A program made the translations under genes and the position numbers. This document shows positions 13,659-15,975 of a stretch of 64,000 bases of DNA, one piece after another. The notes below the pieces were generated by a model that searched no databases, was not told the DNA's origin, and worked only from the letters and a program-made list of their open reading frames with translations. The stretch lies in assembly GCA_964016885.1 (NCBI GenBank), contig OZ024757.1, positions 2,728,001 to 2,792,000 of the forward strand, read 5' to 3'. Within the stretch, counting starts at the first letter, position 1; each line of letters opens with the position of its first letter. This DNA is from Eledone cirrhosa (Eukaryota).

Positions 13659-15975
13659 CATTATGAAGAGAGAAGAAACATTTAGATATAATTAGTAATA
13701 AAATGTATCATACCTAAACTGTTCCTAAATTCCTCGACTACGTAGTTTCGTGGCATAAACAAAAACAATATATCAAAGATATAGAGTCCTTGCGAGGTCT
13801 GCCGACTTATCAAGAGGATACCTCATTTTACTAGTCTCAAGAACGCGTCTACACGACGTGAGAAAGAATCCCAAAAGGCGGAGGGGGGAGACAGTCACGC
13901 GATATAACGGTCGAGAAACAGAGCTAAGCCTCTTATAACCACGAAGAAAATACCACGGAGGCGGAGGGGGTATTCATATCGAGGCCGTAGAAGAGGTAGT
14001 GAAGAAGGCGAGAAGTATGAGTAATGGAAGCTTTCCAGTTGTCCCCACACTTCAAAGATTGCTCGACCAGAGGGAGTTATTAATATATTTAGAAACACAC
14101 AGATACATGCGGACACACACATATATACATGAATGCATCCGCACCCAACTGTGAGTTAAGGGTGCCAACTTCACCGATGTTGCTCAATGAATGACTGGGA
14201 CAGACCAATTCAGTTTGAACCAGACTGAACCAGTATCAGAGTTAGAAATACATTATGAAGAGAGAAGAAACATTTAGATATAATTAGTAATAAAATGTAT
14301 CATACCTAAACTGTTCCTAAATTCCTCGACTACGTAGTTTCGTGGCATAAACAAAAACAATATATCAAAGATATAGAGTCCTTGCGAGGTCTGCCGACTT
14401 ATCAAGAGGATACCTCATTTTACTAGTCTCAAGAACGCGTCTACACGACGTGAGAAAGAATCCCAAAAGGCGGAGGGGGAGACAGTCACGCGATATAACG
14501 GTCGAGAAACAGAGCTAAGCCTCTTATAACCACGAAGAAAATACCACGGAGGCGGAGGGGGTATTCATATCGAGGCCGTAGAAGAGGTAGTGAAGAAGGC
14601 GAGAAGTATGAGTAATGGAAGCTTTCCAGTTGTCCCCACACTTCAAAGATTGCTCGACCAGAGGGAGTTATTAATATATTTAGAAACACACAGATACATG
14701 CGGACACACACATATATACATGAATGCATCCGCACCCAACTGTGAGTTAAGGGTGCCAACTTCACCGATGTTGCTCAATGAATGACTGGGACAGACCAAT
14801 TCAGTTTGAACCAGACTGAACCAGTATCAGAGTTAGAAATACATTATGAAGAGAGAAGAAACATTTAGATATAATTAGTAATAAAATGTATCATACCTAA
14901 ACTGTACCCCCTCCGCCTCCGTGGTATTTTCTTCGTGGTTATAAGAGGCTTAGCTCTGTTTCTCGACCGTTATATCGCGTGACTGTCTCCCCCTCCGCCT
15001 TTTGGGATTCTTTCTCACGTCGTGTAGACGCGTTCTTGAGACTAGTAAAATGAGGTATCCTCTTGATAAGTCGACAGACCTCGCAAGGACTCTATATCTT
15101 TGATATATTGTTTTTGTTTATGCCACGAAACTACGTAGTCGAGGAATTTAGGAACAGTTTAGGTATGATACATTTTATTACTAATTATATCTAAATGTTT
15201 CTTCTCTCTTCATAATGTATTTCTAACTCTGATACTGGTTCAGTCTGGTTCAAACTGAATTGGTCTGTCCCAGTCATTCATTGAGCAACATCGGTGAAGT
15301 TGGCACCCTTAACTCACAGTTGGGTGCGGATGCATTCATGTATATATGTGTGTGTCCGCATGTATCTGTGTGTTTCTAAATATATTAATAACTCCCTCTG
15401 GTCGAGCAATCTTTGAATGTGTGGGGACAACTGGAAAGCTTCCATTACTCATACTTCTCGCCTTCTTCACTACCTCTTCTACGGCCTCGATATGAATACC
15501 CCCTCCGCCTCCGTGGTATTTTCTTCGTGGTTATAAGAGGCTTAGCTCTGTTTCTCGACCGTTATATCGCGTGACTGTCTCCCCCTCCGCCTTTTGGGAT
15601 TCTTTCTCACGTCGTGTAGACGCGTTCTTGAGACTAGTAAAATGAGGTATCCTCTTGATAAGTCGGCAGACCTCGCAAGGACTCTATATCTTTGATATAT
15701 TGTTTTTGTTTATGCCACGAAACTACGTAGTCGAGGAATTTAGGAACAGTTTAGGTATGATACATTTTATTACTAATTATATCTAAATGTTTCTTCTCTC
15801 TTCATAATGTATTTCTAACTCTGATACTGGTTCAGTCTGGTTCAAACTGAATTGGTCTGTCCCAGTCATTCATTGAGCAACATCGGTGAAGTTGGCACCC
15901 TTAACTCACAGTTGGGTGCGGATGCATTCATGTATATATGTGTGTGTCCGCATGTATCTGTGTGTTTCTAAATAT
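13659..15975. mobile_element. Concatemer of a 591-nt non-coding HHR monomer with an internal inversion (retrozyme-like)
   Basis: Units start at 13659, 14251 and 14842 (partial); orientation flips near 14905, followed by about 1.8 reverse units; near-identical; inserted in a (TA)n tract that is empty in block A. Confidence 0.9.
15650..15737 (+). ncRNA. HHR with U3-A8 variant core
   Basis: tcctc-TTGATAA-gtcggca..tgccac-GAAA-ctacgtag-TC-gagga; also 15058-15145 (+), 13731-13818 (-) and 14323-14410 (-). Confidence 0.85.

Follow-up and report, generated by a model that had tools for sequence, protein, structure and literature searches.

It is a standing proposal that PLE enzymes mobilise animal retrozymes through more-than-unit reverse transcription of ribozyme circles, and it has so far rested on co-occurrence and on pLTR similarity. 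For PLEs themselves, the portions of the published work drawn on here describe insertions made up of a partial tandem and an adjacent inverted, 5'-truncated copy, with tails and a bias towards (TA)n (PMC8557442, PMC3846280). The purified PLE protein of the anole is reported to nick both strands and extend them, and to use two internal sites of the RNA as starts, by which the genomic tail is explained (PMC11167929). In the sections used of a study on Schistosoma, PLEs are described with U3-A8 cores and with pairs of hammerheads on opposite strands, the U3-A8 covariation being reported in about 1300 PLE hammerheads (PMC4209133). Such hammerheads were reported, again in partial sources, as weak, dimer-dependent or protein-assisted (PMC11167929, PMC4209133), and in the accessible part of a survey of Xenopus only one of the nine predicted retrozymes cleaved in vitro (bioRxiv 10.64898/2026.07.22.740005).

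The window, i.e. the whole 64-kb stretch of DNA that was analysed, contains a 2.3 kb head-to-head array composed of two opposite-facing arms of a 591-nt non-coding unit, as established by self-BLAST and alignment of the units. The left arm (13656-14905, minus strand, 1250 nt) comprises 2.12 units, with its 3' end (in the RNA sense) at the left flank and its 5' end at the junction; the right arm (14905-15977, plus strand, 1073 nt) comprises 1.82 units and runs from its 5' end at the junction to its 3' end at the right flank. The RNA 3' ends are directed outward and the 5' ends meet. A sequence-only reading of the same DNA had described about 2.1 and about 1.8 nearly identical units in opposite orientations within (TA)n, with breakpoints at differing phases of the monomer, and both statements were reproduced. 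The period of the unit is 591, or 592 where a 1-nt insertion is present, and over the 2.3 kb the only differences among the units are a substitution at 15074 and two indels of one base, each found in a single copy. Counted in nucleotides from the hammerhead cleavage site, the phase of the outer end is 80 for the left arm and 245 for the right, and that of the inner end is 14 and 357, respectively. At the head-to-head junction (14905), phase 14 is joined to phase 357 over one shared T (1 nt of microhomology) and no palindrome is formed. About 900 nt of template sequence is common to both arms, and TA microhomology of 3 nt (left) and 6 nt (right) is seen at the outer ends.

The unit has no coding capacity: its longest stop-free frame is 86 aa, and its length does not keep the frame. 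An ORF for RT and GIY-YIG, by which an autonomous PLE is recognised, is absent from the unit, no tRNA gene was detected in the window, and neither a tRNA-derived head nor an LTR-type structure was recognised in the unit. Each arm carries two complete type I hammerhead motifs, and at least two consecutive units of this kind mark a non-LTR retrozyme; an inverted, 5'-truncated copy placed head to head with outward 3' ends marks a PLE derivative and was likewise found. A 10-nt word occurs twice per unit, at phases of about 355 and 437 (15498-15507 and 15582-15591). We take this word to be GC-box-like, and it might be a promoter element.

The array is set in a (TA)n target, the left part of which is preserved at 13614-13655 and the right remnant at 15978-15983; microhomology extends over the last three TA-like bases ahead of 13659, which suit the element as well. 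An AT-rich microsatellite target is a further mark of PLE derivatives. The window as a whole is AT-rich and microsatellite-rich and would seem to resemble a repeat-rich animal genome. A duplicate of the locus, block A (2621-5609, plus strand), is matched by block B (12836-13661 plus 15969-18164), and self-BLAST paired the two blocks to the left of the element (2621-3450 with 12836-13661) and to its right (3436-5609 with 15969-18164). Block A holds only (AT)22 (3407-3450) at the site of the array, with flanks collinear with block B, and the site is therefore empty there, as had been noticed before. Outside simple repeats, the blocks differ at 12 of 2495 sites (99.5% identity). Were the array as old as the duplication, about 5.6 substitutions would be expected among its units, vs. 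the one observed (Poisson P 0.025; conditional binomial P 0.049), a dating that consists of small counts and presumes no gene conversion between units. This difference favours insertion into B over loss from A and agrees with the earlier claim of a recent insertion, in the sense of one younger than the duplication. Inverted repeats between TA tracts can be excised cleanly, and an element of the age of the duplication might in that way have been lost from block A by recombination between the flanking TA tracts; the high identity of A and B would also suit a pair of uncollapsed alleles. The substitution count speaks against such a loss, and between alleles the insertion would be polymorphic and hence still young, so this pair of explanations is regarded as very unlikely.

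The unit is part of a large, dispersed, multi-variant mobile repeat family. All or part of it was contained in 20 of the 24 public sequencing runs listed, and 11 runs, under eight organism labels, contained at least half of its words; no RNA data set was among the holders listed, which speaks neither for nor against expression. Four of the 24 runs were compared with 14565-15153, a segment that represents every phase once together with the junction, and runs with a low share of the words were left aside. Run X2 yielded 1547 matching contigs with many variants, at a summed depth of 0.7-5.4 x 10^5, which is not a copy number. Among the TA-joined loose ends listed for X2, the best supported were those at 14839 (seven contigs, phase 80) and 14674 (five contigs, phase 245), and these two coincide exactly with the two outer ends of the array; a further 89 loose ends of the four runs, all with weaker support, lay outside the listing. 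Junctions of family copies with (TA)n thus occur at two fixed phases, which lie downstream of the predicted cleavage site by 80 and 245 nt, and two alternative 3' ends (the tail), which again mark a PLE derivative, are found in the window as well as in X2.

These ends bear on how the second arm arose, for which a template switch or a second priming event had been offered. The second priming is the better supported of the two, because both outer ends are recurrent TA-joined ends. Alternatively, priming might have happened once, the inverted arm then being made by a switch of template or strand, through self-priming or fold-back with the new cDNA or an antisense RNA as substrate. A precedent is the self-priming proposed, in the excerpted source, for rotifer PLE inversions with palindromic junctions (PMC3846280), and a palindromic inversion of such a kind is present in the window at 46502-47244. 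The junction of the array, at which phase 14 meets phase 357, is non-palindromic, however, and a switch with random termination would not predict two outer ends at recurrent phases, so that this course of events is considered unlikely.

The window alleles at two variable sites are rare in the family. At phase 83, the allele accounts for 416 of 142750 of the X2 depth (0.3%), and at phase 437 for 4167 of 332890 (1.3%), yet each is carried by all four window copies and by both arms. Rare alleles common to both arms point to a single template or a single source locus, and the single insertion that had been claimed is supported by them. Two independent head-to-head insertions into one TA tract, or two RNAs priming one target (dual priming), might be expected of a family that is abundant and TA-targeting, and dual priming is known for L1, where, in the excerpted source, it is indistinguishable from twin priming (PMC2837659). 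No TA is found between the arms, though, and the shared rare alleles count against separate origins, while remaining compatible with a pair of RNAs from the same locus; these possibilities are accordingly given rather little weight, somewhat less than the switch.

The junction at 14905 was crossed by no read or contig among the pieces listed from the four runs, a listing beyond which 1655 further pieces lay, and long inverted repeats are described as difficult to assemble in the part of the literature consulted (PMC8557442), so that an assembly or chimeric-read artefact had to be weighed. The junction lacks mirror symmetry, beyond the array the flanks continue in line with those of the empty duplicate, both ends match independently observed family ends, and like structures exist in other families of the window. 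An artefact is on these grounds the most improbable of the explanations considered.

We regard it as quite probable that the array is an animal non-LTR retrozyme that resulted from one recent insertion by a PLE enzyme, in which both strands of the (TA)n were nicked and one RNA was copied from each. Phases 80 and 245 would be the two internal reverse-transcription starts of the family, equivalent to the PLE 'tail'; the same arrangement is proposed here as for the anole PLE with its two internal starts, with a spacing of 165 nt. Each cDNA would have run for about two units and stopped, and the two cDNAs would then have been end-joined over 1 nt. The strand switch had been correctly seen in the earlier reading but was under-stated there, since it is an ordinary structure of PLE insertions in the excerpted accounts (PMC8557442, PMC3846280) and recurs in the window at 60701-62180. 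The template may have been a circular monomer copied repeatedly, as in the rolling-circle reverse transcription of the earlier reading, or an uncleaved linear multimer, the two being about equally probable. With roughly two identical units each, the arms suit a circle and a homogeneous linear multimer equally well, and they agree with the rolling-circle proposal for retrozymes as given in the available parts of two reports (PMC7229834, PMC4209133). The three differences within the array are not shared between the arms at equivalent template positions, which indicates later or independent errors and does not discriminate circle from multimer. The inner end of the left arm is separated from a cleavage site by 13 nt (chance about 1 in 20 for two inner ends), a proximity that hints at run-off at the ribozyme-cut 5' end of a linear RNA. 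As to the mobilising PLE, no similarity of the unit to the PLE frames, to their flanks or elsewhere was found within the 64-kb window.

The type I hammerhead was recognised by inspection, once per unit, and is complete in all four copies: on the minus strand at 13731-13818 (predicted cleavage between 13736 and 13735) and 14323-14410 (between 14328 and 14327), and on the plus strand at 15058-15145 (after 15140) and 15650-15737 (after 15732). The motif consists of a 5-bp stem I, the core TTGATAA (U3-A8), a 57-nt stem II region closed by G-C, and GAAA; U3-A8 takes the place of C3-G8 in the core. Stem III has 3 bp and lies inside a 10-nt palindrome with a predicted self-dimer of -14.3 kcal/mol. 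The private G>A at 15074, present only in the third copy, breaks a stem II pair that is kept by the family base. Across the window, Rfam gave no match at the gathering score and 13 matches at E<=10, none of them a ribozyme, on either strand. A hammerhead descriptor, written after the motif had been seen, matched the unit once in the sense and not at all in the antisense direction, and matched none of 20000 dinucleotide shuffles of the unit. A second hammerhead family is represented in the window by two copies of about 80% identity (60701-62180 and 45760-47244, with motifs at 60886 and 45941), has a U3-A8 core and a 55-59-nt stem II, and shows no sequence similarity to the 591-nt unit beyond chance (stems compared by script). 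Because the core is the same and stems I and III are different yet paired, this family supports the hammerhead fold. Since U3-A8 hammerheads with a long stem II escape Rfam, such families are probably undercounted.

Shuffled versions of the unit fold much less well than the circular unit itself (z -5.7, 60 shuffles), and in the model of the circular monomer the hammerhead stems I and III have a probability of 0.0. For the isolated 97-nt piece, the hammerhead fold lies 1.5 kcal/mol above the minimum. In the equilibrium models, the hammerhead fold is not favoured. A co-transcriptional folding window before masking was considered and not supported, with stem I at 0.0 in 32 of 32 nascent prefixes and stem III at no more than 0.08. 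The predicted hammerhead would cleave poorly alone and would need a dimer form (through the palindromic stem III) or the help of a protein. A viroid-like circular RNA with ribozymes of both polarities was rejected, on account of the absence of descriptor matches on the antisense strand and of any Rfam ribozyme on either strand. Twister and HDV folds were judged by eye to be unconvincing and were also without a match in Rfam.

Transcripts of the array could form a duplex of at most 909 bp or 827 bp, depending on the register; of the earlier estimate of about 1 kb of dsRNA, the duplex can be kept and the full length cannot. Each arm could release one monomer, in line with the claim that monomers would come from either strand, but the two monomers would share one polarity. 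Read-through transcription, whichever side it comes from, meets the antisense arm first, and the formation of a 0.8-0.9 kb hairpin, with silencing, would appear to be favoured over cleavage. The predicted product of read-through is this hairpin, probably together with small RNAs.

The copy of the second family at 60701-62180 has the same antisense-then-sense geometry between TA tracts, with one end about 97 nt and the other 16-20 nt beyond the U3-A8 hammerhead that it carries. In the copy at 45760-47244, the inversion is palindromic and has its centre near 46870. Additional candidates for type I hammerheads, from several families, were noted at 289, 3115/13352, 3884/16447/41759, 20427/50238/51440, 37348/45611/49997 and 58163; many of them end at a TA tract 39-60 nt past the cleavage site, and Rfam identified none. 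In the pair at 3115/13352, the core is U3-G8 and the stem II region spans 38 nt. A 469-nt hammerhead unit forms a partial tandem of 1.5 units at 41427-42138, directly followed by a decayed PLE-type frame (42145-43971), and occurs also in blocks A and B (3552-4034 and 16115-16597), where it is followed by a 240-nt palindrome. At 41250-41405, a 14-nt word containing a palindrome is present four times with TA runs between the copies. Two adjacent minisatellite arrays (24154-28824) show a flip of base skew near 27470, which suggests an inversion within the satellite.

The other PLE-type frame (6276-8763) is frameshifted near 6640-6758. It has 1152 homologues at E<=1e-20 among the 7999 scored, none above 50% identity among the 120 matches listed; many of these homologues carry PF26215, and the top match also PF01541, which we take to be the GIY-YIG family. 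A direct Pfam scan of six PLE-like frames matched none of them, and the assignment of frames to PLEs is based on homologues and on motifs read by eye. The frame is located between direct repeats (5530-6176 and 11864-12715), and a dispersed repeat of 190 nt interrupts the second of these. The whole unit (5530-12715) lies between blocks A and B, and the 3-kb duplication may therefore be linked to a PLE event.

Among runs labelled with other organisms, X1 contained one 621-nt self-closing contig (depth 7.8), which either a circle or a collapsed tandem would produce, and X5 one of 577 nt (depth 105). Neither contig shows variants or has flanks at the family ends, and at the three variable sites listed each has the X2 majority base. 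In the raw reads of X22, a second sample of organism G, whose other run contains the unit, the unit was absent from 1938 million letters, apart from five reads that all belong to its microsatellite-like part, and X21 and X24 contained next to none of its words, which is no proof of absence. For these flank-less, family-majority copies, the most likely source is trace DNA from a repeat that is very abundant. A horizontal transfer, into organisms A and C, was judged less likely, in view of the single variant-free majority contig and the absence from X22. A reading of the unit as a free circular replicon, able to pass between animal species and occasionally fixed in the chromosomes of a host by two-directional rolling-circle reverse transcription, could draw on these single flank-less contigs and on the eight organism labels, and is highly improbable. 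A search of viral contigs with a degenerate U3-A8 pattern gave nine matches, none with a stem I longer than 2 bp, and these were taken as chance; a metagenome scan with an exact 21-mer gave no match.

To the proposal that PLE enzymes mobilise animal retrozymes, the array adds a mechanistic footprint, namely a protein-free hammerhead concatemer with the two-start signature of PLEs, both arms of which exceed one unit and can be traced to one template. The points of note are the two fixed priming sites, their long spacing and the use of the locus as a test case for retrozyme mobilisation: a young, high-copy family with two such sites would allow circle and linear multimer to be tested against each other through the distribution of inner breakpoints and arm lengths. 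In literature searches that took in few subscription journals, no paper came up on retrozyme arrays arranged head to head with fixed ends.

Compared with L1 twin priming, as set out in the excerpts of PMC2837659, the array is similar in that both target strands prime cDNA and in that inverted and direct segments are joined internally, and dissimilar in having no poly(A) tail. In L1, the two segments come from distinct portions of a single linear RNA and are separated by a deletion, whereas the arms of the array overlap by the stretch of template given above and start at fixed internal sites. Closer likeness is seen to EN+ PLEs, with which the array shares the partial tandem, the inverted 5'-truncated copy placed head to head and the (TA)n target (PMC8557442, PMC3846280, in part), as well as two alternative 3' ends, the U3-A8 core and the small palindromic stem III (PMC11167929, PMC4209133, in part). 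The first end lies 80 nt past the cleavage site here and 85-92 nt past it in the anole element, as taken from the coordinates in the section of the paper used. Unlike EN+ PLEs, the array has no ORF, both of its arms are longer than one unit, and its stem II region extends to 57 nt; its two ends are 165 nt apart, vs. 30-40 in the PLE tails of the published excerpts, and short TA microhomology is present at both array ends, whereas the anole PLE is described, in the part available, as priming without microhomology. With animal non-LTR retrozymes, as far as they are characterised in the portions used of PMC7229834 and bioRxiv 10.64898/2026.07.22.740005, the array has in common a non-coding tandem with one type I hammerhead per unit, a GC content below 50%, a strongly self-paired circle, few units per locus and PLEs in the same genome. 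The unit of 591 nt exceeds the usual 150-450 nt of animal retrozymes and is within the 51-972 nt of the 2026 survey (bioRxiv 10.64898/2026.07.22.740005, in part). Its ribozyme is of the PLE type (U3-A8, long stem II) and not canonical, and its predicted circle masks the ribozyme, unlike most metazoan retrozymes described in these sources. The array belongs among the animal non-LTR retrozymes, which are non-autonomous PLEs, and is a worked example of them rather than a new system.
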